Assembly: GCA_964474885.1 (NCBI GenBank)
Contig: CAYYWO010000009.1
Span: forward strand, 1-43,615
Source: Candidatus Hadarchaeota archaeon
GTDB taxonomy: Archaea; Hadarchaeota; Hadarchaeia; Hadarchaeales; JAWBSP01
Direction: 5' to 3'
Length of the DNA: 43,615 nucleotides
Every line of letters starts with the position of its first letter. The first letter of the stretch is position 1. Below are positions 2,975-40,108 of this stretch, piece after piece. A program made the position numbers and the translations under genes. The notes beneath the pieces are model-generated. The model saw only the letters and a list, made by a program, of their open reading frames with translations, did no database searches and was not told the origin of the DNA.

Positions 2975-4090
2975 ATGAAGACGACCGTGTCTGTAATAAA
3001 GTGTGACGTAGGATCCCTGGCCGGGCATCACGTTGTTCCCCAACCACTGTTCAACATTGCCGAGAGAAAGATGAAAGAAGCCAAGGAGACCGGCTTGATA
3101 AATAGCTACTTTGTCTTCAACGCGGGTGACGACCTAGAGCTCCTGATGGTGCACACGAAGGGAGAAAACAACCCAGAGATACACAAACTGGCTTGGGAGA
3201 CCTTCCAAGAGGCTGCCAAGAAAGCATTGGATCTGAAGCTGTATGCTGCTGGACAGGACATCCTCAAAACAGCCTTCAGCGGAAACATAAGGGGAATGGG
3301 GCCTGGGGTTGCTGAAATGGAATTCGAGGAAAGAAAGTCGGATCCCGTAATCGTCTTTGCTGCCGATAAAACGGAACCCGGGGCCTTCAACTTCCCGCTG
3401 TTCCGCATCTTCGCGGACCCCTTCAACACAGCAGGACTTGTGATCGACCCCAATATGACGGGCGGCTTCAAGTTTGAGGTCATGGATGTCTACGAGAACA
3501 AGAAGGTCGTCCTGAAGGCTCCAGAAGAGATGTATGAAATCATTGCGTTGATCGGGAATCCAGGTCAGTACGTCGTGTCCCACGTCTGGAGAGCCAGCGA
3601 TGATCTTATCTGTGCCGCGACCAGTACGACGAGGCTGGCACTGATAGCTGGGAAGTATGTTGGAAAGGACGACCCAGTGTGTATCGTGAGAGCTCAGCAT
3701 GGACTTCCAGCAGTAGGAGAGGTTCTAGCACCCTTCATGCACTCCTTCTGGGTTGAGGGATGGATGAGAGGCAGCCACTGGGGCCCCCTGATGCCAGTGG
3801 GGCTGAAGAACTCCAGGTGCTGTGTCTTCGACGGGCCGCCTAGGATCGTTGCTCTAGGATTTCAAGTGGCTAATGGGAAGATCGCTGAGGATGACAATGG
3901 TAAACCAATGATCGCTGACCTCTTCGACGACCCGTCCTTTGACTTGGCGAGAAGAGAGGCAACCGAGTATGCCGCTATGATCAGACGGATGGGAGAGTTC
4001 GAGCCGGCTAGACTGGGTAAAGAGTCCATGGAGTACACGACGCTCCCCAGCGTCCTAGAAAAGCTCAAGAGTAGATTCGTTCCGGCCTAG
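2975..4090 (+). CDS. fbp: Bifunctional fructose-1,6-bisphosphate aldolase/phosphatase
   Basis: KCDVGS.AGH, GDDLEL, YAAGQD, DKTEPGAFN, YVGKDDP, GWMRGSH motifs; second Met (2975) chosen as start. Confidence 0.95.
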   Translation: MKTTVSVIKCDVGSLAGHHVVPQPLFNIAERKMKEAKETGLINSYFVFNAGDDLELLMVHTKGENNPEIHKLAWETFQEAAKKALDLKLYAAGQDILKTAFSGNIRGMGPGVAEMEFEERKSDPVIVFAADKTEPGAFNFPLFRIFADPFNTAGLVIDPNMTGGFKFEVMDVYENKKVVLKAPEEMYEIIALIGNPGQYVVSHVWRASDDLICAATSTTRLALIAGKYVGKDDPVCIVRAQHGLPAVGEVLAPFMHSFWVEGWMRGSHWGPLMPVGLKNSRCCVFDGPPRIVALGFQVANGKIAEDDNGKPMIADLFDDPSFDLARREATEYAAMIRRMGEFEPARLGKESMEYTTLPSVLEKLKSRFVPA

Positions 4091-4830
4091 GGTACAAACA
4101 GGTCCTCTGCTTCCGGTCTAAGGATTTCGGTTATTGGTTTTTCTCTTCTTTCATACTTAACGCCTCTCACAAGAACCGCCGGAACTCCTTCGTCTGCCTC
4201 CCCCATGACCAGATTTGCCGCAGCAGCAACCGCATCCACAATACAAACCAACGTCTTCTTCAGAGTTCTCCCATACAAATCCTTTTTCCCTCGATAGTCC
4301 AGCATCGGGTCGATGCCTGAGATCCCGATTGCATACCCTACTACACCTCTCCTGAAAGCCCTGCCACTCGTGTCACTTATTATGACGGCAAGCTTCTTCC
4401 CCGTGAATTCTTCCAACTTCTTTCTAAGGCAACGAGCGCTCCTGTCGGGATCCCGCGGCAACAGCAACAGCTCCCCGGGAGGAGCGTTGGAGCTGTCGAC
4501 CCCCGAATGAGCACAGACAAATCCATGACGGGTCCTCGTGATCAGGCTTCCCTTTGCTCTCAGCACCTGGACTGAGTTGGACAGAATCACCTCAACCTCT
4601 CTGGCATCCCTCCCAAGGCCTTCCGCCAGCCTCAGTGCCTCCGGACTGGGCTTCACTTCCGATAACCTGATGGTGCTCCCCTCGGCTTTGGACACCAACG
4701 TTTGTGCGACGACCAGTATGTCCCCGTCTTCGACCTGCAGCCCGTTTTCACGTATGGCTTTGATCAAGAGAAAAGCCAGGTCGTCTCCCTTCGACACGAG
4801 AGGTATGCCTCTTATGGGTATGAATTGCAT
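4087..4830 (-). CDS. cofE: Coenzyme F420-0:L-glutamate ligase
   Basis: GDDL, VSKAEG, GVDSSN, LLPRDPDRSA, ISDTSGRAFRRG, DLYG, GEADEGVP motifs. Confidence 0.93.
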   Translation of the reverse strand: MQFIPIRGIPLVSKGDDLAFLLIKAIRENGLQVEDGDILVVAQTLVSKAEGSTIRLSEVKPSPEALRLAEGLGRDAREVEVILSNSVQVLRAKGSLITRTRHGFVCAHSGVDSSNAPPGELLLLPRDPDRSARCLRKKLEEFTGKKLAVIISDTSGRAFRRGVVGYAIGISGIDPMLDYRGKKDLYGRTLKKTLVCIVDAVAAAANLVMGEADEGVPAVLVRGVKYERREKPITEILRPEAEDLFVP

Positions 4831-4854
4831 CTAATACTGTGACCGTATATACGG

Positions 4855-5817
4855 ATGGTTAGATTCGGCTTGGAAATAGTCCCGTACCATCCCGTGCAGA
4901 CCTGCGTCGAAATAGCGAGGAAAGCGGAGGAAATCGGTATTGACCAAGTGTGGGTCTGCGAACACTTTCACAACAGGCATGCATACTCAGTGCTCACCGC
5001 CATCTCCCTCCAAACGGCTAGAGTAAGGTTGGGCCCTGGCATCACGAATCCTTACCTGACGCATCCGGTTTTAACTGCTACTGCCATTGCTACACTGAAC
5101 GAGGTCTCAAAAGGTAGGGCTTTGCTCGGTATCTCAGCGGGGGATCCCATCTTTCTCACCACTGCCGGCATCCAGCAACGTAAACCTGTCACGGCCGTAA
5201 AAGAGGCCATTCAAATAATCCGCGGGATGCTGAGAGGTGAGACTGTCAACTTTCAGGGTGAGATATTCAACTGTCATGGAGTACGACTCCGATTCAAGGT
5301 ACAGGGTGGCATCCCGATATACGTGGGGGGCAGGAGACCTCGCATGCTGCGAATGGCTTCCGAGTTCGCCGACGGAGTGCTACTCAACGCGGGACACCCG
5401 GACGATGTCAGGGATTGCATAAGATATTTGGGAAACTCCACCATTGAAAAAGCAGCTTACGTGCCCCTCTCCTTGGAGGAGGATGTCCAGCTGGCAAAAA
5501 GACTAGTCAAAGGTGTTATTTCTTTCATGGTCTCAAGCTATCCTCCAGATTCCCTGATCCAGCATGGGATAGACCCCCAGAAAGTGAAGGAAATACGTGC
5601 ATATTTGCTTGCAGGGCGACTCAACGAGGCCAGAAGCCTAGTCGACGACAAGATGGTCGACATCTTCGCTATCTGTGACCTCAAATCACTGGAAATGCGT
5701 GTGAGTGAGCTGGAAAAGATAGGTATCGACAGAGTAATCATAGGCTCACCGATAAGCCGCAATCCTGTTCAGGCCCTTGACCGAATAAAATGTGTGATGA
5801 GCTATGAAGTGTCCTAA
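4855..5817 (+). CDS. mer: F420-dependent LLM oxidoreductase, Mer-like (methylene-H4MPT reductase family)
   Basis: FGLEIVP, WVCEHFHNR, LGPGITNPY, ATAIATLNE, LGISAGD, DGVLLNAGHP resemble Mer; divergent from cofE; exact substrate not certain. Confidence 0.7.
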   Translation: MVRFGLEIVPYHPVQTCVEIARKAEEIGIDQVWVCEHFHNRHAYSVLTAISLQTARVRLGPGITNPYLTHPVLTATAIATLNEVSKGRALLGISAGDPIFLTTAGIQQRKPVTAVKEAIQIIRGMLRGETVNFQGEIFNCHGVRLRFKVQGGIPIYVGGRRPRMLRMASEFADGVLLNAGHPDDVRDCIRYLGNSTIEKAAYVPLSLEEDVQLAKRLVKGVISFMVSSYPPDSLIQHGIDPQKVKEIRAYLLAGRLNEARSLVDDKMVDIFAICDLKSLEMRVSELEKIGIDRVIIGSPISRNPVQALDRIKCVMSYEVS

Positions 5818-6448
5818 CTGTGGCTCCAAGTTTGTAATAGAGAGTTACGATCGAACCACGGGGAGGGTGGTCTACACCTGTCCTATTTGCGGAGCTCGGT
5901 GGTTTCGGGAAGAGATCAGACTCCCCGGGGCCGAAGAAGAGGAGGAAATTGTGGAAGAGGAAGAAGTCGAAATAGAGATAGAAAGACCAAAATGGCCCAT
6001 CGCAATAGCTGCCGCCTGCATTACCATCCTTGCTGTTTATCTTTTCATGCCACAGCTGCCCCAGCAGATCGCGGGCCTCTTGAAGGGAATGCTCCCCTCG
6101 GGAGAACAGCAGAGTGAACCCGAAACACCGGAAGCTGAGGAAGTCTCCCCTTATGAGGAGCCCTTCGTTAATCTAACACAAGCTGTGAGGAATAAGGACA
6201 CCGTGCTCGCCTTCAGCTGTTTTTCCTCTAGGATAAGGAACCTCTACGTGCAACAGGAAATGGAGGAAGTTTTAAATCAGCTGAGCGGAGAAAACGTCAC
6301 TTTTGAGCTTCGGTACTTCGATCCCTTTCGCGGTGATGCGATTGTGCTTACCACAGTGGGGCCCGTCAACGGAAAATACAGGATAAGAATGGTCGAAGAG
6401 GGTGGGTACTGGCTTATCGATAACTGGATCGAGGACTTCCTCCCTTGA
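5804..6448 (+). CDS. Hypothetical membrane protein: N-terminal Zn ribbon, acidic tract, one TM helix, C-terminal NTF2-like domain
   Basis: CPNC...CPIC; EEEEEIVEEEE; hydrophobic IAIAAACITILAVYLFM; C-terminal RMVEEGGYWLID typical of NTF2/DUF4878-like folds (inference). Confidence 0.6.
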   Translation: MKCPNCGSKFVIESYDRTTGRVVYTCPICGARWFREEIRLPGAEEEEEIVEEEEVEIEIERPKWPIAIAAACITILAVYLFMPQLPQQIAGLLKGMLPSGEQQSEPETPEAEEVSPYEEPFVNLTQAVRNKDTVLAFSCFSSRIRNLYVQQEMEEVLNQLSGENVTFELRYFDPFRGDAIVLTTVGPVNGKYRIRMVEEGGYWLIDNWIEDFLP

Positions 6449-6956
6449 TGCTCTTCTCGAGTTTTGATGGAATTGACTCGATATCCCCTTCCAGACCGAA
6501 GTAGCTCAAAAACTTTTGGGTCGGACGGATGATTTTAGTTCGCTGGTAGTTGCGTGTTTCGATGAAGCCTAACTGAGAAAGCAGTCTTATGTGCTCGTAA
6601 ATATGCTTCCCCCGCAGCCTAACTATATCCTTTTGAAAAACGTGGGGGCCCTGATACGCGATCAGGGCTAGAGTTTTTAGCACACCTTTTGAAAGCCTAA
6701 CCTTGGGCACCAATCCTGATTTGGTAAGTCTCTCCAGGTATTGCTCCCGCAGACGCAGGCGAACGGAGGAGCCCTGAAGCACTAGCTTGAAAGGTCTGCC
6801 CCTCCTCTCCAGCCTCTGCCTAAGCCTCTCAAGTACCTTCTTGACATACGAGTCGGAAGAAGTACCGATAAGCCTTTTTACTTCCTCAATTGAGAGAAAA
6901 CCTTCCCTAGCGATGAGCGTCGCTTCCACCAGATTGCAATCAGCATCCAGACTCAT
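6414..6956 (-). CDS. scpB: SMC-Scp complex subunit ScpB (kite)
   Basis: VEATL, LSKGVLKTLALIAYQGP, QKDIVRLRG, GFIE, T.KFLSYFGL tandem-wHTH motifs; coupled to scpA. Confidence 0.92.
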   Translation of the reverse strand: MSLDADCNLVEATLIAREGFLSIEEVKRLIGTSSDSYVKKVLERLRQRLERRGRPFKLVLQGSSVRLRLREQYLERLTKSGLVPKVRLSKGVLKTLALIAYQGPHVFQKDIVRLRGKHIYEHIRLLSQLGFIETRNYQRTKIIRPTQKFLSYFGLEGDIESIPSKLEKSIKGGSPRSSYR

Positions 6957-7560
6957 CCTTGACCTTCACCTCCAGATCGTTTTCAAGCTGTACCAGGCTC
7001 ACCTTCTGTTCGGAAGCCAAAAAAACGAGAAGCAGAAAAAGCCTGACTATCTCCGAGCGGTCCCTTTTGGTTAGCAGATCGGAAAACCTCACAGGTCCGG
7101 GAAGCGAGTGTAGCCTGTCAAGGAGTTGACGCATGTGCTTCTCCAACTCGTGCTCAAAGTCGTGAAATACTATGCGCTCTCCTACTATCCTTGGCCTGCT
7201 GGTTTTCTTGTAGAAGATTTTTTTCGATTCCGCGATGGCTTCCTTAAGGGCATCCAGAAGTTCCCCAAGACCGACGGGGCGCGGAGAATACGTCATTGGA
7301 ACTAGCGGGCCTATGTCAGGAAGCTCAGGAACCTCTTCTTCATCTATGAGCTGCAACTGTTGCTTCCCGTTACTATTTCCGTCGGACTTCAAACGGAGAA
7401 GAGTTGAGGCTGACAGAACTCCCCTTCCGCATGTCCGAAGATCTGGTGATCTGAGTTGCTGCCGCAGCCAAGCATCCATCAGTCTGGCAATGTCTATTTC
7501 CCAGGGATCTAGTCTGCCCTCCGACACGAGTTCCAACAAAATGCTAAAAGGCTCATGCAT
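6940..7560 (-). CDS. scpA: SMC-Scp complex subunit ScpA (kleisin)
   Basis: LDPWEIDI, ASTLLRLKS, LGELLDAL, FSDLL...VRLFLLLVFL...V.L.Q motifs; ATG 7560 lies just after the smc stop. Confidence 0.92.
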   Translation of the reverse strand: MHEPFSILLELVSEGRLDPWEIDIARLMDAWLRQQLRSPDLRTCGRGVLSASTLLRLKSDGNSNGKQQLQLIDEEEVPELPDIGPLVPMTYSPRPVGLGELLDALKEAIAESKKIFYKKTSRPRIVGERIVFHDFEHELEKHMRQLLDRLHSLPGPVRFSDLLTKRDRSEIVRLFLLLVFLASEQKVSLVQLENDLEVKVKDESGC

Positions 7561-7561
7561 C

Positions 7562-9682
7562 TCAATCACCCTCAAAAGCAGATGGGTCGAGAATCCTAAC
7601 TTGGGACACCCCACCCTCCTTATACACGCCCACTAGGCGGTTGGCAGCCTCCATAACGGGTGTCCTGAAAGAGACAACGATGAGCTGCGAGTTCCTAGAG
7701 TACTCTTTCAAAAGCTCCGCAACCCTCCTGACGTTTATGGGGTCCAGGCTTGCATCCACCTCGTCAAACACATAAAGAGCGGATGGTTTGACCTGCTGCA
7801 GGGCAAAGATGAAGGACAATACAACCAAGGCCTTCTCCCCACCCGATATGCTGAAGACATCCCTCATGAGCCCGCCCTTAACAAACCTCGCCCTCATCTC
7901 CAGGCCTCCTTCAAACGGATTCTCGGGATTCTGGAGTATGAGCTTTGCTTCTCCCTCGGGTTGCAAGCGTTGGAAAATCTCAGAAAAAGCTCTGCTTATG
8001 CGGTGGAAGAGATTCATAAAGACTTCCTTTTTCTTCTGCTCGATCTCTTGGATGGCTCGCTCGATCCTTTCCTTCTCCTTTTGTTGCTTCTGATACTTCT
8101 GACTCAGTTTTTCGTACTCTGCCCTGCAGGATCTGTAGGATTGCCTCGCCTTAAAGTTAATCTCGCCCAACCTATCCTGTTCCAGTTTCAATTTCCGCAA
8201 CTTGGACTCGATCTGGCTGGGGGTTATCCCCCGAGGGATGTTCGCCCTCTTCAGGTTTTTGATCCTCTCCTCCAGTCTCCCTTTTTCCTCACGCAAGCTT
8301 GCTATTCTCAAATCAAGCTGCGCACGCTGTTGTTGCAAGCGACTGTGTAGGCTCTCCAGTCCCCTTATCTTGTTTCCCAGTGTTTCTCTCAGGCTCTCTA
8401 TCTGCTTAAGTCTGCGTCTCCCTTCCTTGACTTTCTTCCGAACCCTCTGGAACTGCTCCTCCTTTTGCTTCAGCTGCCGGCGGAGCTCCTCGATTCTGGA
8501 GTTGACCTCGCTCAGTTCTACAGCTGTTGTCGAGGGCGCTGGCAAGGGGGATGCGCACAAGAGCTCCTCTATCTCACGCAGAACATGTTCTATTTTTTTC
8601 AGAACCTTCATGGCTACCCTCGGATCGGCTGGCTTCAGTTCCGCACGCAGGCGTCTGAACTTGGAGAGAAGCTCCTGAAATCGAACCCATCTGCCTTCAG
8701 CCTCCCTAAGGCGCGCTTGCAATCTTTTTCCCCTGTCCAGCTCATCCTGCAGTTGCCTGCTAAGCATGTCGAGCTTCCCTTTCAGTGTATAGAAGTTCTC
8801 TAGTCCAAGCGACTTTTGTTGCTCCGAGATCAGACGCTCAAGCCTATCCCGTTCTCTCTTGAGCTTGGATTTCTTGTTTTCAACCGAGGCGATCTTCGAC
8901 TCCAGTTCTCTCTTCTCTTTTTGAAGCTTGCCCAGCTGGGATGCTATCGTTCTGAGACTGAGCTGGCACTTCCTGTACTCAAGACCCGATTTCCAGCTTT
9001 CCAGCTTTGAAATCTCTCTCTGCAGACTTTCATACCTCTCTATCTTCTGCAGGTCCTCCTCCAATTCGTGAAGTCTCTTTTCCACCTGCTCCAGCTGGAC
9101 CCTCTGAAGTTGGAGATTCGATTCCACTTTCTTCAGCTCTTCCACCGCCTTGGCTTTCTTCTCGTCGAACTCGGAAACCCCGGCTATCTCGTCTATCAGT
9201 TGCCGGCGCTCGATGGGACTCATAGCTGCCAAGCTGCTGACCTCACCCTGGAGGATGAAACTGTAATCGCCCAAGGAGAACTGGCTCGATGCTAAGAGAT
9301 CCAGCACTTCCTGCCTGCTCACTCTCTTTCCATTGATCAGGTATATACATCTGCCATCCCTGTCCAATTTCCTCGCGATTATCACTTCCTTGTCTGGGAG
9401 CGGCAGGCCGCGATCTGAGTTATCTAGGGTAAGTGCAACCTCTGCTGAACTGGCAGGCTTAAATCCGTTCCCTCCCGAGAAGAGCAGATCCGAGAAGCGC
9501 TCCGCCCGCATGTACTTCGCGCTCATTTCCCCGATGACAAAAAGCAATGCCTCAATTATGGTGCTCTTCCCGGATCCGTTCTTACCGACTATACAGGTGA
9601 ACCTTGGATCGAACGAGACTGAGGTTTTAAAATTACCGAAAGACTTGAAGCCCCTGAGCTCTAACTTTTTTACGTGAACCAC
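7562..9682 (-). CDS. smc: Smc ATPase, unusually short (706 aa), no recognisable hinge
   Basis: GFKSF, Walker A GKNGSGKS, R-loop, Q-loop ILQG, joint LGEINFKA, signature ISGGEK, Walker B/D-loop FDEVDASLD; first gene of smc-scpA-scpB. Confidence 0.9.
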   Translation of the reverse strand: MVHVKKLELRGFKSFGNFKTSVSFDPRFTCIVGKNGSGKSTIIEALLFVIGEMSAKYMRAERFSDLLFSGGNGFKPASSAEVALTLDNSDRGLPLPDKEVIIARKLDRDGRCIYLINGKRVSRQEVLDLLASSQFSLGDYSFILQGEVSSLAAMSPIERRQLIDEIAGVSEFDEKKAKAVEELKKVESNLQLQRVQLEQVEKRLHELEEDLQKIERYESLQREISKLESWKSGLEYRKCQLSLRTIASQLGKLQKEKRELESKIASVENKKSKLKRERDRLERLISEQQKSLGLENFYTLKGKLDMLSRQLQDELDRGKRLQARLREAEGRWVRFQELLSKFRRLRAELKPADPRVAMKVLKKIEHVLREIEELLCASPLPAPSTTAVELSEVNSRIEELRRQLKQKEEQFQRVRKKVKEGRRRLKQIESLRETLGNKIRGLESLHSRLQQQRAQLDLRIASLREEKGRLEERIKNLKRANIPRGITPSQIESKLRKLKLEQDRLGEINFKARQSYRSCRAEYEKLSQKYQKQQKEKERIERAIQEIEQKKKEVFMNLFHRISRAFSEIFQRLQPEGEAKLILQNPENPFEGGLEMRARFVKGGLMRDVFSISGGEKALVVLSFIFALQQVKPSALYVFDEVDASLDPINVRRVAELLKEYSRNSQLIVVSFRTPVMEAANRLVGVYKEGGVSQVRILDPSAFEGD

Positions 9683-9753
9683 TCAGCACTCCTCCCCACC
9701 CCCGCCAGCTTACAATAATCAGTCATAATTCTAAAAACTTTTGCTTCAATCGA

Positions 9754-17105: not shown

Positions 17106-17646
17106 GCACGTACCTCTGAACATATCTACCCAGCCAATCCACTCGATCCACTACACGTTCCCCCCGCTTCAGCGCCCTGAGGAAATCCTCAATCGCCTCC
17201 TCCAAATCCCTCCTTGTCAGGTCTATCTGATGGACTTTTCGCGGGTGCCTGCGGAGGGCTTCGACCCATATGATGTCCAGGGCCTCCGCCTCCAGGTTCT
17301 CCCTGATCTTCTCTCCGCTGTAACCCCGTGCCCTCAGCCTCCGCTCGAGCCGGGTAGGATCCAGCCTGAGTACCACCACTGCATCCAGCAGCCTGTCCGG
17401 AAGGTAGTGGGAGAGGTGCCCGTCCACCACCAGCCTACCCCTAGCCACCGAACGGAACCTGCGCCTAAGCCTGCTCAGGTCCACTTCAAAGCTCCCGTCC
17501 TCTGCCTCCCTACCGAGCCCGAGCCGCCTGGCCCACTCGCTCAGGTCCAGCATCTCCGCACCCAGTTTCCGGGCCAGCTTCCGGGCAAAAGTCGTCTTCC
17601 CGGTCCCGGGCGTACCGGTTACCGCTATGATCAGATTTTTTCGCAC
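17089..17646 (-). CDS. AK6/Fap7-like adenylate kinase/ATPase
   Basis: [35 protein letters not shown]. Confidence 0.9.
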
Positions 17647-18632
17647 CTCAGATCGATCGTGTCCCAGATCCCAGGTCCTGTGGATATGAGGGTGACGGGC
17701 ACCCCCAGCTCCCGCTCGACCTCCCTGATGAATTTCCTGGCGGGCTGGGGCAGATCCCCGTACCTCCTCACAGGTCCAGTTTTGAAAAGCCTGTCCAGGC
17801 AGGTTATGGCCAGCTGGGTGGCCCCGTTTATCATGCAGGCTTTCCTCGCCAGCTCGAAATCGAACCTCCCAACCCTTCTCCTCCTCCCCGTTACCGTCCC
17901 GTGCTCGACTATCCCGGCCTTCTCGGCCTCTTCCTGGGACATCTCAGTCGGAAAAGGCCCATTTCCAACTCTCGTCGGGTAGGCCTTGAAGACTAGGAGG
18001 ACCTCATCCACCTCCGTGGGTCCCAGACCCACATCCGCCGCAAGGGAGCTGGCGGTCACGTCCTTGCTCGTTACGTATGGATATGTCCCGTAGAGGAGGG
18101 AAAGGCCGAAGCCTTGGGAGCCCTCAACCAGGATGTCCCCACCTTCTCCCATGATCTCGTGCAGCTCCGAGGGGACGTCTGCTAAGTAGGGCTGCAGCTC
18201 CTGGACCTGAGAAGCCAGCTTTGCCTGCCTCCTCACCCTCGCCACGTTCGCGGGGCCGCAGCCCGTCCCCGTGGTCCCTATCCTCCCACCCTCTCTCTTG
18301 TCCTCCTCTATGTGTGGGGGCTCGATCACCGCACACCTCCCATCAACGCCAAGCCTATCCCCACAGCCGGTTTCCTGGATCTCCCTCAGCAGAACTGGCG
18401 GGTCCACCAGCACGCCCGCGCCTATGAACAGCTTGCAGTTCGGATTCACAAAACCCGACGGCACTTGCCTTAGCCCGTATCTCTTGCCCTGAAACAGAAC
18501 GGTGTGCCCGGCATTCGGCCCGACCCCTGCCCTGGCAATGGCGCTCGGATTGTCCTTCAGTGCGAGATAAGCAACAATTTTACCTTTCCCCTCATCCCCC
18601 CACTGACCCCCCGCAACTATGGTGACAACCAT
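17631..18632 (-). CDS. purA: Adenylosuccinate synthetase (short archaeal type)
   Basis: [54 protein letters not shown]. Confidence 0.97.
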
Positions 18633-19971: not shown

Positions 19972-21144
19972 GTGAAAGTCTGCTCGGCTCCCGGGAGGGC
20001 GGACTTCCTTAACACCCACCAGGACTACAAGGGACTGCCCGTGGTCCCGGTTGCCATCGATCTCCGGACCCGCTGCTGGGGGAGGCGCCTGGCAGGCAGG
20101 TTCAGGATAAAGTCCCTCAACCTGGAGGAGCTAGGGGAGCCCTGCGTGGACGAGTTCGAGGTGAGAGTGAACCAAATGGAGCCGGGGTGGTTCGGAAACT
20201 ACTTCAGGGGGATCGTGAACGTGCTGCTCAAGCACGGGTACAAAATAGACGGGATGGAGGTGACCGTCCGGAGCGAGGTCCCCGTGGGCTCGGGCCTCTC
20301 CAGCTCCGCCGCCCTGGAGGTCTCCTTCCTGAAGCTGCTGGATGCAACCTACGGGCTGGGGTTAAGTAAGAGGGAGCTGGCCGAGCTTGCCTTCGAGGCA
20401 GAGAACAGGGAGGTAGGGGTGCCCTGCGGCAGGCTGGACCAGTACGGGTGCACCTTCGGGGGCATGATAAAGCTGGAGTGCAGGCCCCCCTACAGGGTGG
20501 AGGAGTTGCCCGCCCAGGGCCTGATCTTCGCCATCATAGACTCGGGAATAAGGCACTCCACGGCCGACATACACCCCATCAGGCAGCGCGAGCTGAACGA
20601 GGGGCTGAAGGCGCTGTCCGAGACCCCGCTGGGAAGGAAGCTCGGGGGGCTCACCTTCGACCAGGCGAGATGGGAGCTGCTCACCGAGGCTGAGCTGAGG
20701 CCCTACCTGGACTCCCTGCCCGAAAAGCCCGCCAAGCGCCTGCTCTTCACGGTGCTTCAGCAGCTCTCCACCGAGCTGGCGCTCAAGGTGCTAAGAGAGC
20801 AGGCTAGGGAGGGTGAGGTCAAGGAGCTGCTCGGGTGCTCGGGCTCCAAGCTAGAGGTGCTTGGGAGGATCATGAACCTGCAGCACGAGTACCTGAGGGA
20901 CCTGTACGAGGTGAGTCTGCCGGAGCTCGAGCAGCTAAGGGAGGCCTGCCTGAGGGCCGGGGCGCTTGGAGTAAAGATCTCGGGTGCGGGCATGGGAGGC
21001 AGCCTCATCGCCCTGGTCCCAGACAGGCGGACAGGGGAAAGAGTGGTCAGGGAGGCGGTGGAGAGCGGGGCCAGGGCTGGATGGGTGTCCGAGGTGGCGG
21101 AGGGCGTGAGGGAGGAGAGGCGAGAACGAAGCGTTAACAGATAA
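19972..21144 (+). CDS. GHMP sugar-1-kinase (galactokinase family, variant substrate motif)
   Basis: APGRADFLNTHQDY, PVGSGLSSSAA, CGRLDQ, KISGAGMGG. Confidence 0.88.
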   Translation: MKVCSAPGRADFLNTHQDYKGLPVVPVAIDLRTRCWGRRLAGRFRIKSLNLEELGEPCVDEFEVRVNQMEPGWFGNYFRGIVNVLLKHGYKIDGMEVTVRSEVPVGSGLSSSAALEVSFLKLLDATYGLGLSKRELAELAFEAENREVGVPCGRLDQYGCTFGGMIKLECRPPYRVEELPAQGLIFAIIDSGIRHSTADIHPIRQRELNEGLKALSETPLGRKLGGLTFDQARWELLTEAELRPYLDSLPEKPAKRLLFTVLQQLSTELALKVLREQAREGEVKELLGCSGSKLEVLGRIMNLQHEYLRDLYEVSLPELEQLREACLRAGALGVKISGAGMGGSLIALVPDRRTGERVVREAVESGARAGWVSEVAEGVREERRERSVNR

Positions 21145-21427
21145 ACAGTTCGCGAAAAGTGTTTATAACAGATAAACACTTCCTGCAAAGTGTTTGTAAC
21201 ACACAAACAGTTCCTGTGTCTGTCTGTTACTATGGTAACAGACACCTCCTCTGCAGCTTAGAAGCAACATCCACGAACCAGCCAATCTGTCTGTTACCAT
21301 GGTAACAGACAACATATCTGGAACGGAGATGATTCTCCTTTCGAAGCTTGGTTTTTGTTTCCCATTTTAGGAAACAAAACACACACATTCCATGAACCGC
21401 ACGCCTCCTGTACCATGGTAACGGACA
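21129..21427. repeat. Cluster of palindromic motifs: B x3 (31-bp phased), A x2 plus one partial, C x1
   Basis: B: 21129-21150, 21157-21181 AAGTGTTTAT-AACAG-ATAAACACTT, 21188-21212. A: 21221-21244, 21288-21311 TGTCTGTTACCATGGTAACAGACA, partial 21411-21427. C: 21353-21379 TTTTGTTTCCCA-TTT-TAGGAAACAAAA. Confidence 0.9.
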
Positions 21428-21443
21428 ACGCCCGCTGTGCCAC

Positions 21444-22859
21444 GTGCACCCCGTTAGATATGTTGGGTCTCGTAAAAAGGAGATGGAGCTGCTGGAGGAG
21501 ATCCTGAGGCGCATCAAGCCCAGCCCCCAGGAGGAGGAAGAGCTGGGGAGGGTGTCCGCCCTCCTGCTCGAGCGCACGCGCAGGGCGTGCGAGGAGGAGG
21601 GGGTGGGGAAGCCCATGCTTGTGGGCTCGGCAGCCAGGGGTACATGGCTAAGGGGGGAGAAGGACATAGACGTCTTCGTGCTCTTCCCCGAGCGGATGCC
21701 CAGGCGGGAGCTGGAGGAGGTGGGGCTGAGGATAGGGAGGAAGGTGAGCGAGGGGAGGGGTGTGGAGCGGTACGCGGAGCACCCCTTCGTGAGCTTCGAG
21801 TTCCAGGGCTTCCAGGTGGATTTAGTCCCCTGCTACGACGTCCCGGACCCCAGCAGGATAAAGAGCGCGGTGGACAGGTCCCCCCACCACCAGAGGTACG
21901 TGTCAAGCAGGCTGACGCCCGGGCTCAGGGATCAGGTGCTGCTGCTCAAGCAGTTCATGAAGGGGATAGGGGTCTACGGGGCTGAGCTGAAGGTGCACGG
22001 CTTCTCGGGCTACCTGTGCGAGCTCCTGGTCCTGCACTTCGGCTCCTTCCTGGAAGTGCTGCGCGCAGCCTCCAGCTGGAAGCCGGGGGAGGTGATCGAC
22101 CCGCTGGGCAGGTACCCGGATCCCGGCATCCCCCGCAGGCTGTTCGAGGGGGAGCCCCTCATCTTCATAGACCCCGTGGACCCTGGCAGGAACGTGGCAG
22201 CCTCCGTCTCCCTGCAAAGCCTGGCCGTCTTCGTCAGGGCCTGCCAGGACTTCCTCAGGGAGCCCAGCCAGCTCTACTTCTTCCCCAGGCCCGTCAGGCC
22301 GCTCACGGATGAGGAGATAGAGGAGCTGGTGAGGGCCAGGGGGACCAGGCTGCTCTTCCTGCTCTTCGAGCTCCCGGACGTGGTCCCTGACGTCCTCTAC
22401 CCCCAGCTCAGGAAGGCGGAGAGGGCGTTCGTCAGCGCCCTGGGGCAGGCCGGGCACAGGGTGGTGAGGAGCGAGGTCCTGGGGGAGGGGACGGGGCTCA
22501 TCCTGCTGGAGGTCCTGCCTTGCGAGGACAAGATGGAGGTGAGGGAGGGGCCGCCCCTGGGCGTGGATGCTCACAACTTCATCCGGGCTTACCTGCGGTC
22601 CCCCGCCAAGCTGGCAGGTCCCTTCATAGACGGGCAGGGGAGGGTGCTCTACGAGCTGAGGGCCAGGCGCGCGTCCCCGGAGGAGGTGGTGAGGAGGGTT
22701 GCGGGGGAGCCGCACCTGCTGGGGAAGCACGTGGGGGAGAGCATCTCCAGGGGCTACAGGCTTGCGACGGAAAAAGAGCTGAGGGAGGTCCTGAGGCTTG
22801 AGGGGGTCAGGGAGTTCCTCTCCGAGTACCTGACGCGCTGCCTGCCCTGGTACAGGTGA
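21444..22859 (+). CDS. cca: CCA-adding enzyme (archaeal class I)
   Basis: LVGSAARGTWL.G..DIDVF, YAEHPF, VDLVPCY, SAVDRSP.H, GFSGYLCELL, DPVDP.RNVAA; true start may be the ATG of MELLEE about 39 nt downstream. Confidence 0.95.
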   Translation: MHPVRYVGSRKKEMELLEEILRRIKPSPQEEEELGRVSALLLERTRRACEEEGVGKPMLVGSAARGTWLRGEKDIDVFVLFPERMPRRELEEVGLRIGRKVSEGRGVERYAEHPFVSFEFQGFQVDLVPCYDVPDPSRIKSAVDRSPHHQRYVSSRLTPGLRDQVLLLKQFMKGIGVYGAELKVHGFSGYLCELLVLHFGSFLEVLRAASSWKPGEVIDPLGRYPDPGIPRRLFEGEPLIFIDPVDPGRNVAASVSLQSLAVFVRACQDFLREPSQLYFFPRPVRPLTDEEIEELVRARGTRLLFLLFELPDVVPDVLYPQLRKAERAFVSALGQAGHRVVRSEVLGEGTGLILLEVLPCEDKMEVREGPPLGVDAHNFIRAYLRSPAKLAGPFIDGQGRVLYELRARRASPEEVVRRVAGEPHLLGKHVGESISRGYRLATEKELREVLRLEGVREFLSEYLTRCLPWYR

Positions 22860-22886
22860 AAAAGGCAAAAGGGAATTTTATTAGAT

Positions 22887-22988
22887 GCGGGGGTAGCCAA
22901 GCCAGGCTAACGGCGCCAGACTCAAGAGGCCCCCTGGGTTATCTGGTCCCGTAGGGGTTCGAGGGTTCAAATCCCTCCCCCCGCACCA
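22887..22988 (+). tRNA. tRNA-Leu(CAA) with 14-nt canonical intron (22927-22940) and encoded CCA
   Basis: GCGGGGG/CCCCCGC acceptor, CCAGA-CT-CAA-G^...^A-TCTGG, long variable arm, GGTTCAAATCC T-arm; BHB formed by CUCA pairing with intron UGGG. Confidence 0.95.
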
Positions 22989-23074
22989 TGGAGAAGTGTC
23001 TAGTTGCCCGCCCTGTTTGAGTGTTTCGACCCCAGCGGCGGGAAGCTAGAAGATTTTTGAATAGTTAAGTTCTG

Positions 23075-23471
23075 ATGGACTCTTCCTCCTTGAAGGGTCT
23101 TTCACATTGGTTCCCCCTCGCTGAGTTGGATGCAACATCCCTCCCTGAAAAATCAGAGGTTTACGTGATTCGGCTCCGAGGAGGGCTCTTCGGAAGGCTC
23201 AGAGGTAGGTCAGACATCATCTACATTAGGAAGTTCTGTGAATCTCCAGCGAAGAATTAGACAGTTCCAAAAACCGGGAAAGACGCAGCGAACGAACAAA
23301 CGTCTGAAAAAGTTACTGGAGAAGTACGGATCCAAACTGGAAATCAGCTATCGTTGTTGTGAGAAGGATCAGGCAAGAGAGCTTGAGGAAGATTTATTGA
23401 AAAGGTATCTGAAGGATCACGAGGAGCTACCCCCGCTCAACCGGTCACTGCCAAGGGGGACTGAAAGTTAA
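23075..23471 (+). pseudogene. GIY-YIG nuclease family gene with a single frameshift
   Basis: EVYVIR...DIIYI; removing one base at about 23227 restores YIGSSVNLQRRI...ELEEDLL..Y...HEELPPLN. Confidence 0.7.
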
Positions 23472-23725
23472 TGTTTCGTTTCGAGGAACCGCCGAAGTCC
23501 AGAGCTGGCAACGCCGAGGTGCACATACCCGTAAAAACAGCTTGGAAAGCGATGGCTGCAGGGATGGCGGGAGAGTGGCTCGCACTTCACGGCATAATCA
23601 GCTACTTGAGTAGATTGCCCGGAGCTGAGAGATGCAGGTTTTACGTTGTATCGGGCAGGTCTTATTTCAGCAAAAGAGGAAGAATCACCGTCGACACCAC
23701 TTCAATGGAAGGACGCTATGGGTAG
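23471..23725 (+). CDS. Hypothetical protein (islet), possibly a remnant
   Basis: 84-aa ORF coupled to the upstream stop; no motif recognised. Confidence 0.3.
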   Translation: MFRFEEPPKSRAGNAEVHIPVKTAWKAMAAGMAGEWLALHGIISYLSRLPGAERCRFYVVSGRSYFSKRGRITVDTTSMEGRYG

Positions 23726-23777
23726 GCAGTGAAAACGTTGAATTCACTTCTCACCCCTCCACGAATGGCTTCAGAGA

Positions 23778-24427
23778 GTGATAAGTGAGAAAGAGAGGAG
23801 ACCTCTTTTAGTGTTAGCGAAATGCTTGAAGCTGGAGAAGGAAACACTTGGAGAATACCTGCAAAGAGGACGTAAATCGCTAATACGTCAATTTATGTCG
23901 ATTCATAGTAAGGATAGGGCCAGCCAGCGAGCTCTCGAACGTAGACGAATGGATGAAAGGAGAAAAGAACTCAGAGAGCTTTTGAATGAGTTATCTGATC
24001 TGGAACTCGCAAGACTAGCTTATGCCGTAGATAAGTACTTCAAACAGCGGCCGTGGGGAACTTGGGAATTTCTCAGCCTCCTACGACCTAGATCCTTGCT
24101 TCCGCATCAGATTTTGAGGGAAGCTCGTGCAGAAACGAGGAAATGGAGTTGTATCTGGATGCCCTGAAGCTCTTGCAACACTACACGCCTGACTTCATGA
24201 TAATTCAAAAGCCTGATTTCATGATAAACAAAAAAACCGAAGGGGTTCGCCCCAGACTCTGGTTTGTCGAGGTAAAAGCAGGCGGGTCGAAGCTAACAAA
24301 AACGCAGAAGAGGGTGAAGGAGGAATGCGGAAGTGGGATGATAGGCTTTATCACGGTTCACCTTCCGAAAATCATTCTCCCCTCCGAGATGAGGCTCGTG
24401 ATCAGTGGTGCATCACCATCGCTCTAA
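23778..24427 (+). pseudogene. Helical domain plus VRR-NUC/PD-(D/E)xK nuclease, split into two overlapping ORFs
   Basis: 24143-24427 has PDFMI...WFVEVKAGGSKLTKTQKR; overlaps 23778-24167 by 25 nt; internal duplication CCTGAYTTCATGATAA (PDFMI twice). Confidence 0.55.
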
Positions 24428-24479
24428 AGTCCCATTTTCAAAGTTTGAAAACATCTCCACCAGATCTCTTGTTGTTTTC

Positions 24480-24500
24480 TGTTTCCTGTTTTAGGAAACA
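24480..24500. repeat. Palindromic motif C copy
   Basis: TGTTTCCTG-TTT-TAGGAAACA. Confidence 0.8.
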
Positions 24501-24558
24501 ATCTCAGCAATTCGGTTTTTCTTCTAAATGCCCCATACTTGTCTAGATTATCTTTTCG

Positions 24559-25092
24559 ATGGTGCCCGAGGTTTGGGTGCTCAGGTTCTCGCACAGGGTG
24601 GAGAGGGACAAGAGGGTGACCGCCCACGTAGCCCTGACGTCCAGGGCCTTCGGCTGTAGAGGCATGTACTACTCGGGGGACGCGGATCCGGGCCTGCACC
24701 GGACGGTCCGGGAGGTGAACGAGAGGTGGGGAGGGGAGTTCCTCATCCAGCACGTCCCGGAGCCCCTGCAGCTCGTGAGGGAGTGGAAGCGGAAGGGGAA
24801 GGTGATCCACCTGACCATGTACGGCCTGCCCCTCCCCCAGGTCATAGACGAGATAAGAAGGGACGGCTTGCCCAAGCTCGTGGTTGTAGGGGGGGAGAAG
24901 GTGCCCGCCGAGTTCTTCCAGCTGGCTGACTGGAACGTCTCCATCACCTGCCAGCCCCACTCGGAGGTGGGAGCCCTGGCCGTCTTCCTGCACGAGCTGC
25001 TGGAGGGGAGGGAGTTCGGGCTGGAGTTCAAGGGTGCCAGGCTGAGGGTCGTGCCCCAGGCAAGGGGAAAGAGGGTTGAGGAAACTAGATGA
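24559..25092 (+). CDS. trm56: tRNA (cytidine(56)-2'-O)-methyltransferase aTrm56
   Basis: VLR.SHR.ERDKRVTAHVALTSRAFG, HLTMYG, VVGGEKVP, QPHSEV.ALAVFL. Confidence 0.95.
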   Translation: MVPEVWVLRFSHRVERDKRVTAHVALTSRAFGCRGMYYSGDADPGLHRTVREVNERWGGEFLIQHVPEPLQLVREWKRKGKVIHLTMYGLPLPQVIDEIRRDGLPKLVVVGGEKVPAEFFQLADWNVSITCQPHSEVGALAVFLHELLEGREFGLEFKGARLRVVPQARGKRVEETR

Positions 25093-25174
25093 GGTTTCCA
25101 AACTGATGCGAACAAATTTGGCTGGTGAACTTACGGACGAGACTCGATGTTTTCTTAAAACCGTGTGTCCCTTC

Positions 25175-25540
25175 TTAGAAGAAGTAAGCCGTTCCTTTTG
25201 GCCTTGTTTCTTCGAGTTTTCCAGAAATCGGGTTTACCCTTAAGCCAAGCGATTCCAGAGCCTGCACGCCAAGAACCTGCTGAGCCCCTTCAAAAGTTAA
25301 GGCTATAATTGGGCCCCATCTATCGCCGAGCTCTATAGTTAAAGCATAAGCATCTGCCTCGACCGACCTTCCATCGCCCAGTTTTAGAGGAAATTTTCCG
25401 GGAAGTTTGAGGGCCCCGATCGCTTCAAGTACCTCTCTGGATAACACGGTGTACGTGGCTCCGGTATCCACAATAAGTCCTTTCAAGTTGCGTCTGCCTT
25501 TGGTACCTATTACTGATACGTCGACGCTAACGTGACCCAT
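25175..25540 (-). CDS. Clan AA (retropepsin-like) aspartic protease
   Basis: LIVDTGATYT, LGDGR, LGVQALESLGL.VNP. Confidence 0.88.
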   Translation of the reverse strand: MGHVSVDVSVIGTKGRRNLKGLIVDTGATYTVLSREVLEAIGALKLPGKFPLKLGDGRSVEADAYALTIELGDRWGPIIALTFEGAQQVLGVQALESLGLRVNPISGKLEETRPKGTAYFF

Positions 25541-25887
25541 TTTAACCTATTTGGGCATCGTAAATCGGCCTTTCGATGCCAATTTTATCCGGTGTACCAG
25601 GTGAACAAGAAAGTTGGTGATCGTCTTAGTTAAGGGCATAGGTTCCCGGAGGATACCGGAGAGATACAAGATTCAATCATGAAGGAACTCAATGATAACT
25701 TTACCTAAGTCACTCAGAGGGTACTCCCAGGCCGATGGTTACAACGCTCGACCATATCGTCGTTAAGCGCACATCCGTCCCGAGGATTTATTGCTTTGCT
25801 GAGCGAATCAGACAGAATTGCCTAAAGATCTTACTCGCAAGTTCCCAAGCTTCTCCGCTTGTTAAAAGAATTGTACACCTCCAATTG

Positions 25888-26238
25888 ATGAAACAGAAGC
25901 CCACCATCGAGCAGTACGAGTTCGGGGAGGTGGTGATAGACGGGCGGACGTACACCTCGGACGTGATCGTCTTCCCCGACCGCGTCAGGGCAAACTGGTG
26001 GAGGAAGGAGGGGCACAGGCTGGACGTGGAGGACCTGGAGGAGGTTATCGAGTACAAGCCCGAGCTGCTCATCGTGGGGACGGGCTACTCGGGATGCATG
26101 CAGGTGCCTGAGGAGACCGTCCGGTACCTGCGGATGAAGGGCATAGAAGTGCGGGCCGCGCCCACCCGAGAGGCCGTCCAGCTGTTCAACAGGGTGAAGG
26201 ATAAGAAAGTGGTCGGCTGCTTCCACCTCACCTGCTAG
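25888..26238 (+). CDS. Mth938/DUF498-like domain protein
   Basis: FG...IDG..Y.SDV, WWRKEGH, LIVGTG..G, T.EA...FN, FHLTC terminus; start MKQKP. Confidence 0.9.
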   Translation: MKQKPTIEQYEFGEVVIDGRTYTSDVIVFPDRVRANWWRKEGHRLDVEDLEEVIEYKPELLIVGTGYSGCMQVPEETVRYLRMKGIEVRAAPTREAVQLFNRVKDKKVVGCFHLTC

Positions 26239-27481
26239 GGCTGAACCTGAGGATGGCCGCCATGCCCCCGAAGGCCTTCCAGAGCTGGTTCCCCTCGTCC
26301 GTCTCCCTGGAGATGAGCTCCACCCTGCTCCCGAACTGCTGGGCGGTGTGGAAGAGCTGCTGCACCAGGTCCTCCTTGGAGCCCAGCTCAAGCCTGCCCT
26401 CCCCGCAGCTGGGGCAGGTAGCCTGCCTCAGCCTGCGCTGGAAGAACTCCGGGTCCTCCACCGTCTCCACCCAGCGGTGTCCGCAGGCCTGGCACCTGAC
26501 CTCCACCCTGTACTTGCGGAGGGACTCGGAGACCAGCAGGGTGTCCACCAGCCCCTTGCTTAGCGCGTCTCTGACTGCCTCCTCCCCCCACACCACCAGC
26601 TCCCTCCGGCTTACGAGCATGGACAAGAAGCGCTGAACCAGGTGCTTCTCCTTGGAGAGCTCCAGGTCCGTGAGCACATCCGATACCTTGTCCATGAGCT
26701 CCCTTATCCCCGATTCGTCCGTGTAGCAGCAGTCTAGGACCGCCTTCACCTTCTGCCTGAGCGGCTCCTTCAGCATGCCCAGCTTGAGGAACTCCTCCTT
26801 GGTGGGCCCCGGCCCTCCCACGATGAGCATCTGCAGGTCTGGTACCTGCATGAAGATCTCGTTCACCTCCTCCGCCACGCGCTTCAGGTACTCGTGCTCG
26901 GCTATCTCCCTCAGCCTCTCGAACCTGCGCTGGGACTGCCCACCCTTCGTGTGCTTCCCTGGCACACCGGAGGTCATCTTGCGGACGATCTCCACGTGCT
27001 TCCCCCTCAGCTTGGCTATGGTGGCCTCCTTCCTGTCCAGCACGAGCAGGCCTATCGTCCCCTTTATCTCCAGCATCTCCTCAAGCGGCCTCAGCACGAA
27101 CTCCTGGTCGCACCTGTAGAGCCTGACGGTTATGGGCTCCGGGGGCTCCACCCACCACAGCCTTATGTCCGAAACCCCCTCCTCTCCACTCACGTTCCCG
27201 CAGAAGATGGCCAGGCCGTTCCTAGGGGTCTGCCTGTGCCTCTCGATGTAGGTCTTGAGGAACTGGACTATGCGCTCCAGGGCGGAGATCACGTTCTTGC
27301 GCGTGGACTTGGACTTTATGTTGGAGGCCGTCCCCTGCTCCTCCCTGAGCTGCTGCAGGACCTTGGTGAGCTCGGCCCCCGGCGGTATGTACACGGAGAT
27401 GAGCTCCGTTCCCCTCCCCCGCTTGGACCTGAGCTCCTCCAGCAGCCTGCGGAACTGGTAGCGCTCCAGCTGCTTCGCCAT
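26228..27481 (-). CDS. prf1: Peptide chain release factor aRF1
   Basis: GTELIS, NIKS, YRCDQEF, GGQS, FGG.AAILRF. Confidence 0.97.
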   Translation of the reverse strand: MAKQLERYQFRRLLEELRSKRGRGTELISVYIPPGAELTKVLQQLREEQGTASNIKSKSTRKNVISALERIVQFLKTYIERHRQTPRNGLAIFCGNVSGEEGVSDIRLWWVEPPEPITVRLYRCDQEFVLRPLEEMLEIKGTIGLLVLDRKEATIAKLRGKHVEIVRKMTSGVPGKHTKGGQSQRRFERLREIAEHEYLKRVAEEVNEIFMQVPDLQMLIVGGPGPTKEEFLKLGMLKEPLRQKVKAVLDCCYTDESGIRELMDKVSDVLTDLELSKEKHLVQRFLSMLVSRRELVVWGEEAVRDALSKGLVDTLLVSESLRKYRVEVRCQACGHRWVETVEDPEFFQRRLRQATCPSCGEGRLELGSKEDLVQQLFHTAQQFGSRVELISRETDEGNQLWKAFGGMAAILRFSPSR

Positions 27482-27500
27482 TCATTATTACGCCAATTTA

Positions 27501-28223: not shown

Positions 28224-28275
28224 CCCCACCGCGGCGATTCTAAGCTCGGGGGCGCTTTGCCAGAAAAGGCGCCCG

Positions 28276-28327
28276 AAGTGTTTCCAACACATAAACACTT
28301 CCGTGTCGGTTACCATGGTAACAGACA
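28276..28327. repeat. Motif B + motif A pair
   Basis: AAGTGTTTCC-AACAC-ATAAACACTT (28276-28300) followed by TGTCGGTTACCATGGTAACAGACA (28304-28327). Confidence 0.88.
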
Positions 28328-28444
28328 ACTCTCTTCGGTCCTGCTCGTGTTACGATAACCGGCATGATCGCCTGACATCGAAGGGGCTCGCTTCCTACGA
28401 GAGCTTGAAAAAGTCTATCGTATCTTGCGTAGGGTATGTTAGGT

Positions 28445-30140: not shown

Positions 30141-30233
30141 CAAACATTATCAACGTATTAACAATGTTTGACAAAACATCATCATTACGATTATAAAGTT
30201 TTAAAGGAAAATTTGAAATATACTGATGATGTT
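30141..30233. promoter_or_regulatory. Repeated AACATYATCA operator-like sites upstream of AAA ATPase
   Basis: CAAACATTATCAA-CGTA-TTAACAATGTTTG dyad (30141-30170), AAACATCATCA (30174-30184), inverted TGATGATGTT (30224-30233) over the start codon. Confidence 0.45.
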
Positions 30234-40089: not shown

Positions 40090-40108
40090 CGTTACATTTT
40101 TGGTAACA

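Follow-up and report, generated by a model that had tools for sequence, protein, structure and literature searches.

A hingeless, half-length Smc encoded with ScpA and ScpB across the archaeal order Hadarchaeales

The hinge of SMC proteins is usually treated as essential, both as the dimerisation site and as a DNA-binding site. In Smc-ScpAB complexes generally, head engagement and ScpA, which bridges neck and cap, keep the two Smc proteins together. The smc gene of a Candidatus Hadarchaeota archaeon (order Hadarchaeales; assembly GCA_964474885.1) raises the question as to how such a complex may work without a hinge. The gene lies on contig CAYYWO010000009.1, of which positions 1 to 43,615 were analysed (the window), and it encodes a protein of only 706 residues, followed immediately by scpA and scpB. 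An earlier note on this DNA, made from the letters alone, had proposed a miniaturised condensin that closes its ring through a different helical module or else works without dimerising at the apex. The part of this proposal that concerns the genes stands: a real short, hinge-less Smc is encoded in an intact smc-scpA-scpB operon, and the short form occurs throughout the order. How the apex works can be answered in graded terms.

The absence of a hinge is consistent across all searches. Pfam reported no match of SMC_hinge (PF06470) to Smc at E ≤ 1, as the earlier note had expected, and a motif scan of the full-length protein found neither the CxxC of a hook nor the GX6GX3GG motif of a hinge. Among 42 family members, CxxC is absent from the middle third of every protein; GX6GX3GG matches do occur in 11 of them, and these were rejected as hinge candidates, for all of them fall on the signature motif of the C-terminal head. 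A remote hinge in the apex was sought with hhalign against an alignment of hinges taken from 62 full-length archaeal Smc proteins. The probability was 0.1–0.6%, whether or not the longer inserts of relatives were treated as match columns; 29 hinge-bearing Smc proteins of about 800 aa, used as a positive control, gave a probability of 100% (E 1.2e-62). An AlphaFold2 (AF2) model of the window protein, based on a 42-sequence alignment (mean predicted local distance difference test score, pLDDT, 84.7; predicted TM score 0.54), contains no strand between the two head halves and only helices within residues 169–573. Structure prediction of the apex covered the window protein, and the apices of relatives were judged by Pfam and hhalign. 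A remote hinge fold within residues 300–400, which the earlier note had named as the finding that would overturn its reading, was therefore not found by Pfam, by hhalign or in the all-helical model.

The extent of the missing part can be read from the canonical Smc profile TIGR02169. This profile matches in two stretches (positions 1–345 and 898–1161 of 1165), and the roughly 550 positions in between (346–897), which comprise the hinge and the distal half of both arm strands, are absent. Because these positions are absent, the score of 517.8 bits falls under the NCBIfam cut-off of 729.4. The borders of the deletion were taken from the profile coordinates; BLASTP against the full-length Smc of an outgroup genome gave ambiguous coiled-coil alignments. 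A second, full-length smc was also sought, as the earlier note had suggested: PF06470 and TIGR02169 gave no other match in the genome, which is 92% complete (1.18 Mb, 60 contigs).

The remainder of the protein is canonical. The reading frame is single and uninterrupted, and all the head motifs read by the earlier note are present at the positions given in Table 1. Pfam assigns the product to SMC_N (5.6e-67). The family profile matches the head and joint of Pyrococcus Smc (PDB 5xei) with E 1.1e-210 in hmmsearch. The AF2 model matches the same structure with E 4.9e-43 in Foldseek and superposes on 5xei_A with a VIA Z of 43.9 and a root-mean-square deviation of 3.2 Å (503 of 517 residues aligned). 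Canonical Smc and this protein agree in heads, neck and joint, and the ATPase motifs are intact.

Short hingeless architectures are found elsewhere in the superfamily, and the protein could in principle be Rad50, ASRP, an SMC5/6-related protein or a Lamassu-, Wadjet- or MADS-type defence ATPase. Models of such proteins do respond to it: PADLOC reports mad3 at 219 bits and LmuB at 103 bits, ASRP (NF045487) scores 97.1 bits against a cut-off of 300, and Rad50 scores 77 bits or less. However, these values stay far below the 518 bits of TIGR02169 and are explained by the head that all these proteins share. PADLOC reports no match for ScpA or ScpB, and the window genes around the operon are housekeeping genes; the defence-system reading was dropped on the PADLOC scores and on the missing PADLOC match of the two partners. 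Furthermore, the genome has its own Rad50, beside a 409-aa gene, and its own operon of the SMC5/6 type. Finally, a tree of the heads places the window Smc in a starred clade (97) of 27 canonical archaeal Smc proteins, the hinge-bearing outgroup protein included; the clade also takes in proteins named Methanocella, Methanoperedenaceae and Bathyarchaeota. This tree was a maximum-likelihood quick search (67 rows, 404 columns) rooted on a single Rad50 and containing no external SMC5/6-related references. Its best version unites the 18 short forms in one clade (Shimodaira–Hasegawa-like approximate likelihood ratio test, SH-aLRT, 79). Taken with the two partner genes, these data make membership in another branch of the superfamily very improbable.

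The SMC5/6-type operon mentioned above lies on contig C8 (L043:1752-5045, minus strand). Its products are an SMC-like ATPase of 675 aa without a hinge, a 247-aa protein that weakly matches Nse4_C and a 179-aa protein, and an operon of this type is kept in all six relatives from which the locus was fetched (L044–L049). In five of these six, a gene of about 230–250 aa lies beside it. The available text of two sources (Yoshinaga & Inagaki 2021, PMC8665677; van Hooff et al., preprint 10.1101/2024.01.07.573240) reports that many archaea have two complete SMC-kleisin-kite operons, and judged by its genes the C8 operon appears to match the SMC5/6-related kind described there. That kind has a three-gene SMC/kleisin/kite layout as well, and the C8 operon would be a short hingeless example. 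It differs from the window operon in having a kleisin with a weak Nse4_C match instead of ScpA, in showing no similarity at the tip and in its distant branch: the two ATPases share 28% identity, and the C8-type proteins stand on a branch of length 4.09 in the head tree. The separate C8 operon and the placement in the tree rule out that the window smc is itself the SMC5/6-type paralogue. Gene conversion from the C8 paralogue found no support as the origin of the tip; hhalign gave a probability of 48%, and only over generic coiled coil outside the tip.

The source is a metagenome-assembled genome of 60 contigs, and a shortened gene could therefore reflect an assembly collapse or a recent in-frame deletion in a single genome. 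Both had been named by the earlier note as findings that would refute it, and neither was seen. Contigs from two other sequencing runs cover the apex DNA (X2: 8402-8793; X3: 8456-8795) with 0 differences and no joints, so two independent runs agree across the apex. A third run spans the whole stretch and may be the source of the present assembly. The relatives have the same short form. We surveyed 66 Hadarchaeota genomes, 65 within Hadarchaeales and one outside, and found the short form in 62 of the 65, distributed over five families (E ≤ 1e-40, open frames up to 800 aa); a single frame of 915 aa among relatives consists of a 720-aa gene extended upstream. The matches in the 62 genomes share 30–50% identity and lie in open frames with no internal stops reported. 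SMC_hinge is found in none of the 65, whereas the lone genome from beyond the order encodes, in a 1144-aa open frame, an Smc with a hinge. When the family profile was compared with 1.84 billion representative proteins, 12 of the best 150 clusters matched end to end in a single stretch (632–770 aa); the remaining matches listed, none shorter than 810 aa, align in at least two pieces. Given these data, an artefact or lesion confined to one genome has a negligible probability.

The partner genes are kept along with the short smc. In the Hadarchaeales loci fetched (L009–L041), ScpA adjoins it in 30 of 31 and ScpB in 29 of 31; in the outgroup genome, smc stands alone on contig C16 and scpA-scpB on contig C94. 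Ratios of nonsynonymous to synonymous substitution rates (dN/dS) from unsaturated pairs are 0.03–0.10 for the heads, 0.08–0.63 for the arms and 0.11–0.43 for the tip. These ratios and the alignment indicate that the whole of smc is under purifying selection, with extra constraint apparently only at specific positions of the tip.

What, then, has taken the place of the hinge? The AF2 model shows a helix–turn–helix. Apart from the elements listed in Table 1, it contains the Ser-rich turn 348–353, helix 354–376 and, on the descending side, helices 383–475, 488–504 and 512–573. The apex string is as the earlier note quoted it, and its lone cysteine is C376; the motif scan of Smc found no Cys pair or metal site in the apex. 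Hydrophobic residues line tip helix 1 (F335/L338/F342/L345/L349) and tip helix 2 (L361/I364/V367/L368/I371/L375) at heptad-spaced positions, and helix 2 bears extra hydrophobic positions at 367 and 374. Four residues are highly conserved across the order (F335 90%, F342 95%, L345 86%, L368 90%), and the tip is the sole conserved feature of the middle ~280 residues. It is also the site of the densest hydrophobic stripe: among 19-residue segments of residues 175–545, only seven, starting at 357–364, contain six columns with at least 80% large hydrophobic residues.

The arms below this tip vary in length. Smc measures 706–797 aa across genera, and the variation stems from insertions that come in pairs, one just ahead of helix 1 and one just behind helix 2 (9/17 residues in the genus of the window, up to 55/56 elsewhere); that the two lengthen together fits a coiled-coil hairpin growing below a fixed tip. 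The Pro-rich break that follows helix 2 spans 28–56 residues in other genera. In the window protein, the arm below the tip has about 160–165 residues, and the strands measured to the turn have 182 (N-terminal) and 190 (C-terminal), so that the value depends on the choice of boundary; the medians to the turn across the alignment are 199.5 and 219, respectively. The arm length of about 160–170 residues given in the earlier note therefore holds below the tip and is too small for the distance to the turn.

On the architecture, orthology, conservation and purifying selection established here, we consider it somewhat probable that this canonical Smc acts with ScpA and ScpB and that its tip replaces the hinge as the dimerisation contact. 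According to this account, the hinge, together with the half of each coiled-coil strand nearest to it, would have been lost at or before the base of Hadarchaeales. This loss would have left the heads, the neck, the joint, about 80 further coiled-coil residues per strand and the conserved helix–turn–helix tip. In a complex with ScpA and ScpB, Smc would use ATP to hold DNA and organise the chromosome, with arms estimated from residue counts at ~25 nm as compared to the usual ~50 nm. Two Smc proteins would be joined by ATP-driven head engagement and by ScpA, the N-terminal domain of which would bind one neck and the C-terminal winged helix the other cap, and a ScpB dimer would sit on ScpA. The tips would associate, probably as a small helical bundle on the broad hydrophobic face of helix 2, and would provide a constitutive dimer contact. 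That the hinge's role in dimerisation has passed to the tip is what we infer from residue conservation and the hydrophobic pattern. The idea is plausible because Bacillus subtilis needs hinge dimerisation and yet tolerates a swap: the available text of the pertinent study reports that loss of hinge dimerisation inactivates Smc and that the Rad50 zinc hook can stand in for the hinge (PMC5344682).

A number of observations weigh against this account. The tip is modelled at a pLDDT of 65–83, and helix 2 might use its extra hydrophobic face to pack within the molecule. Many dN/dS pairs are saturated, and taken as a whole the tip has changed at roughly the pace of the arms. Support for the monophyly of the short forms in the head tree is moderate, at the SH-aLRT value of 79. 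Three genomes (G005, G010 and G030; 75%, 93% and 88% complete) have neither the short smc nor scpB and contain the SMC5/6-type paralogue; their missing operon is either a real loss or an assembly gap. Because three of 65 genomes, one of them 93% complete, are without the short smc and scpB, cells that retain the SMC5/6-type paralogue may be able to do without Smc-ScpAB.

In a different arrangement, the tip would be only a cap and the two Smc proteins would be joined at the head end alone, by ATP engagement, the ScpA bridge and the ScpB dimer. The result would be an open-topped clamp or tweezer without a closed lumen. The tip of the AF2 model is indeed a simple hairpin, its overall dN/dS equals that of the arms, and its want of a Cys pair or metal site suits a cap. 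Moreover, the second SMC-kleisin-kite set of the same genomes is also hingeless, and hinge-free operation may be normal in these cells. A mere cap is in turn hard to reconcile with near-invariant aromatic and leucine positions and the densest hydrophobic stripe of the arm, which lie exactly at the tip, or with the abolition of function by loss of hinge dimerisation that the available text reports for B. subtilis, which is another organism (PMC5344682). We regard the cap arrangement as possible but doubtful.

The three genomes without the operon, and the presence of the paralogue in the relatives examined, would also suit a short Smc that has changed its job or is decaying, with the SMC5/6-type paralogue organising the chromosome and the operon kept for a minor or different role. 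Against this stand ATPase motifs that are all intact, the low dN/dS of the heads, open frames in 62 genomes, and the co-retention of ScpA and ScpB beside nearly all short smc genes fetched. This explanation appears improbable, and dimerisation through the tip remains the reading that we prefer.

Comparison with known systems shows which features are new. The reference is canonical Smc-ScpAB (Pyrococcus 5xei, 5xns and 4i99; TIGR02169), with which the Hadarchaeales complex shares heads, neck, joint, ATPase motifs and the ScpA and ScpB genes. It differs in the missing hinge, in arms of about half the length and in the helix–turn–helix apex, and also in that smc is in one operon with scpAB, whereas the two are apart in the outgroup genome. 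The closest artificial analogues are Mini-Smc and Smc(zinc hook), two forms of the B. subtilis protein engineered by Burmann et al. 2017 (PMC5344682). In the available text of that paper, these constructs likewise have shortened arms and an unrelated apex in place of the hinge. They keep a proven dimerisation domain, however, whereas the Hadarchaeales apex is natural and its dimerisation putative. The same text describes a minor natural mode of Smc arm length at 163 aa (PMC5344682), to which the Hadarchaeales arm below the tip is close. That survey of natural sequences was, as far as the available text describes it, seeded with hinge alignments (PMC5344682), so hingeless forms presumably could not appear in it.

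Natural relatives of the architecture exist as well. The available text of a 2025 study describes a 'hinge-less' SMC clade of marine Actinobacteria and reads its members as variants within SMC diversity (PMC12153180). That clade, which we liken to the present protein by its description only, also has SMC heads, an antiparallel coiled coil and neither hinge nor CxxC. It is bacterial, known from environmental gene-catalogue sequences, and the word 'ScpA' does not occur in the text available to us. Unlike it, the Hadarchaeales Smc comes with genome context and an operon, is conserved order-wide and has an outgroup that bears the hinge. Both fall into the hinge-less architecture class, for the Hadarchaeales protein consists of heads plus an antiparallel coiled coil lacking both hinge and hook. 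Rad50/SbcC also has an SMC-superfamily head together with an antiparallel coiled coil that lacks a hinge; the Hadarchaeales Smc differs from it in lacking the CxxC zinc hook and in having ScpA and ScpB as neighbours. Hinge-bearing ~800-aa Smc proteins among the matches, such as P0021 (named Candidatus Micrarchaeota), are canonical and similar in arm length, but have a normal SMC_hinge (E 7.2e-35 for P0021). The nearest clusters in the ESM Atlas are bacterial SMC_N proteins of 747–882 aa (a sequence search, the output of which does not give hinge status).

No publication linking Hadarchaeota or Hadesarchaea with Smc architecture was found in titles and abstract openings, and supplements on SMC evolution may list such proteins. 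The claim of the earlier note that no Smc like this had been described was too broad, given the actinobacterial hinge-less SMCs (PMC12153180), the tolerated hinge swap (PMC5344682), both as reported in the available texts, and the SMC5/6-type hingeless operon of the same genome. Short arms, hinge swaps and actinobacterial hinge-less SMCs are known; what appears to be new is that across a whole order the Smc of a canonical Smc-ScpAB lacks the hinge and has about half the usual length, with a hinge-bearing outgroup bracketing the loss.

The layout of the operon is summarised in Table 1. The tight coupling of smc, scpA and scpB described in the earlier note was verified: 1 nt separates the smc stop from the likely scpA start, and scpA and scpB overlap by 17 nt. 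The partners are identified by Pfam (SMC_ScpA at 4e-10, SMC_ScpB at 1.1e-26). The longest scpA frame starts at GTG 7614 (6940..7614), yet the gene likely starts at ATG 7560 when compared with its relatives, which begin at the equivalent M-E/H-x-P-F. The smc start is GTG (9680-9682). Neither the window gene nor any of the 30 relatives examined (loci L010–L041) is predicted to begin with ATG; all short smc genes among them use GTG or TTG, and this choice could be a conserved means of holding translation of Smc low relative to ScpAB.

Table 1. Coordinates of the smc-scpA-scpB operon and of the parts of Smc (positions of the window; residues of the respective protein)
Feature	Position	Strand	Description and basis
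smc	7562..9682	minus	706 aa, hinge-less short-armed canonical Smc; stop codon 7562-7564
N-terminal head half	9179..9682	minus	residues 1-168; Walker A GKNGSGKS 33-40, Q-loop ILQG 143-146; AF2 strands and helices, 5xei alignment
ascending arm helix	8693..9178	minus	residues 169-330; AF2 helices 169-291, 294-347
tip hairpin	8555..8692	minus	residues 331-376; conservation, hydrophobic density, AF2, alignment
variable Pro-rich break after helix 2	8507..8554	minus	residues 377-392; AF2 loop 377-382
descending arm	8048..8506	minus	residues 393-545; holds joint loop and LGEINFKA 505-512; AF2, 5xei head and joint match
joint loop	8222-8257	minus	residues 476-487; AF2
C-terminal head half	7565..8047	minus	residues 546-706; signature ISGGEK 612-617, Walker B/D-loop FDEVDASLD 639-647
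GGAGG ribosome-binding-like motif	9691..9695	minus	8 nt upstream of smc GTG start; seen in sequence, putative function
scpA (kleisin)	6940..7560	minus	206 aa from the likely start ATG 7560, 1 nt past smc stop; Pfam SMC_ScpA
scpB (kite)	6414..6956	minus	180 aa; overlaps scpA by 17 nt; Pfam SMC_ScpB

Some features elsewhere in the window and genome are recorded here in their own right. The G+C content of the window swings to 0.48–0.54 at 23000-26000, compared to 0.59–0.66 in the flanking 20000-23000 and 26000-29000. This low-GC stretch contains open reading frames without a Pfam match (23778-25101) and a small frame resembling a gag-type aspartyl protease (25178-25540). Two genes for AAA_14/DUF4143 ATPases lie at 30226-31659 (plus strand) and 41306-42508 (minus strand), and between them are topoisomerase VI A/B (37503-40164) and a MinD/ParA-type ATPase (36332-37051). 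On contig C10, a weak coiled-coil match at about 17527-17988 falls within a 7554-aa open frame.

Other Smc proteins without a recognisable hinge also occur among the matches found. All 12 proteins of about 951–991 aa among these matches (P0078, P0086, P0087, P0092, P0094, P0102, P0104, P0106, P0107, P0109, P0110 and P0116; loci L052–L071) score as canonical Smc, lack a hinge and carry one CPxC/CLVC exactly at mid-length. They come from records named Pacearchaeota, Woesearchaeota and Nanoarchaeota. In most of the loci the match lies at about 4001-6865, and the neighbours vary; one open reading frame in L052 (7724-8860, minus strand) looks Mre11-like by eye. Two proteins of the set that were scanned gave 489–601 bits for canonical Smc versus 96–118 for Rad50 (P0110, for example, 513 bits for TIGR02168 versus 96 for Rad50), and Rad50_zn_hook matched weakly in two of five scanned. 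In the head tree, six of the set group as one clade within the canonical Smc region. Judged by their motif and scores, these CPxC proteins may be a natural counterpart of the engineered zinc-hook Smc; a literature search found nothing on an SMC with a zinc hook in DPANN.

Three further proteins, P0100 (751 aa, C-terminally cut), P0044 (798 aa) and P0164 (838 aa), score 496–600 bits with TIGR02169; SMC_hinge does not match them at E ≤ 0.1, CxxC is absent, and their middle looks helical. From such sequences, hinge loss seems to recur outside Hadarchaeales. A full-length Smc of 1155 aa (P0046, named Nitrososphaerota) has no SMC_hinge match, and P0098 (1158 aa) has a weak partial one (E 0.0012); the hinge of this lineage may be degenerate or replaced. 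Because the Hadarchaeales form is joined by the CPxC proteins and the other hingeless cases, the data suggest that loss or replacement of the hinge happened repeatedly in archaeal Smc.

The available text of a paper from 2025 (PMC12647877) describes the hinge as a gate for obstacle bypass. In the present case, an entire archaeal order has long kept a canonical Smc-ScpAB without this domain, with arms that end about 80 residues past the joint, in cells the second SMC complex of which is hingeless as well. The natural arm-length series is thereby extended, near its 163-aa mode as given in the available text (PMC5344682), to a hingeless form. With 706, 206 and 180 aa, the complex is compact, natural and expressible, and it offers a natural test of which SMC activities, such as ring closure, DNA entrapment, loop extrusion or arm mechanics, need a hinge or long arms. 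In the milder reading, the tip would be a previously undescribed helical dimerisation module and one of several independent natural replacements of the hinge in archaeal Smc, to which the mid-length CPxC apex of the Smc proteins of about 955 aa would also belong. In the stronger one, which we consider unlikely, Hadarchaeales would possess a natural Smc-ScpAB without any apex dimerisation, a short open-topped motor held only at the heads. If apex dimerisation is truly absent, chromosome organisation by a canonical Smc-kleisin-kite complex would require neither a closed Smc ring nor the function of a hinge.

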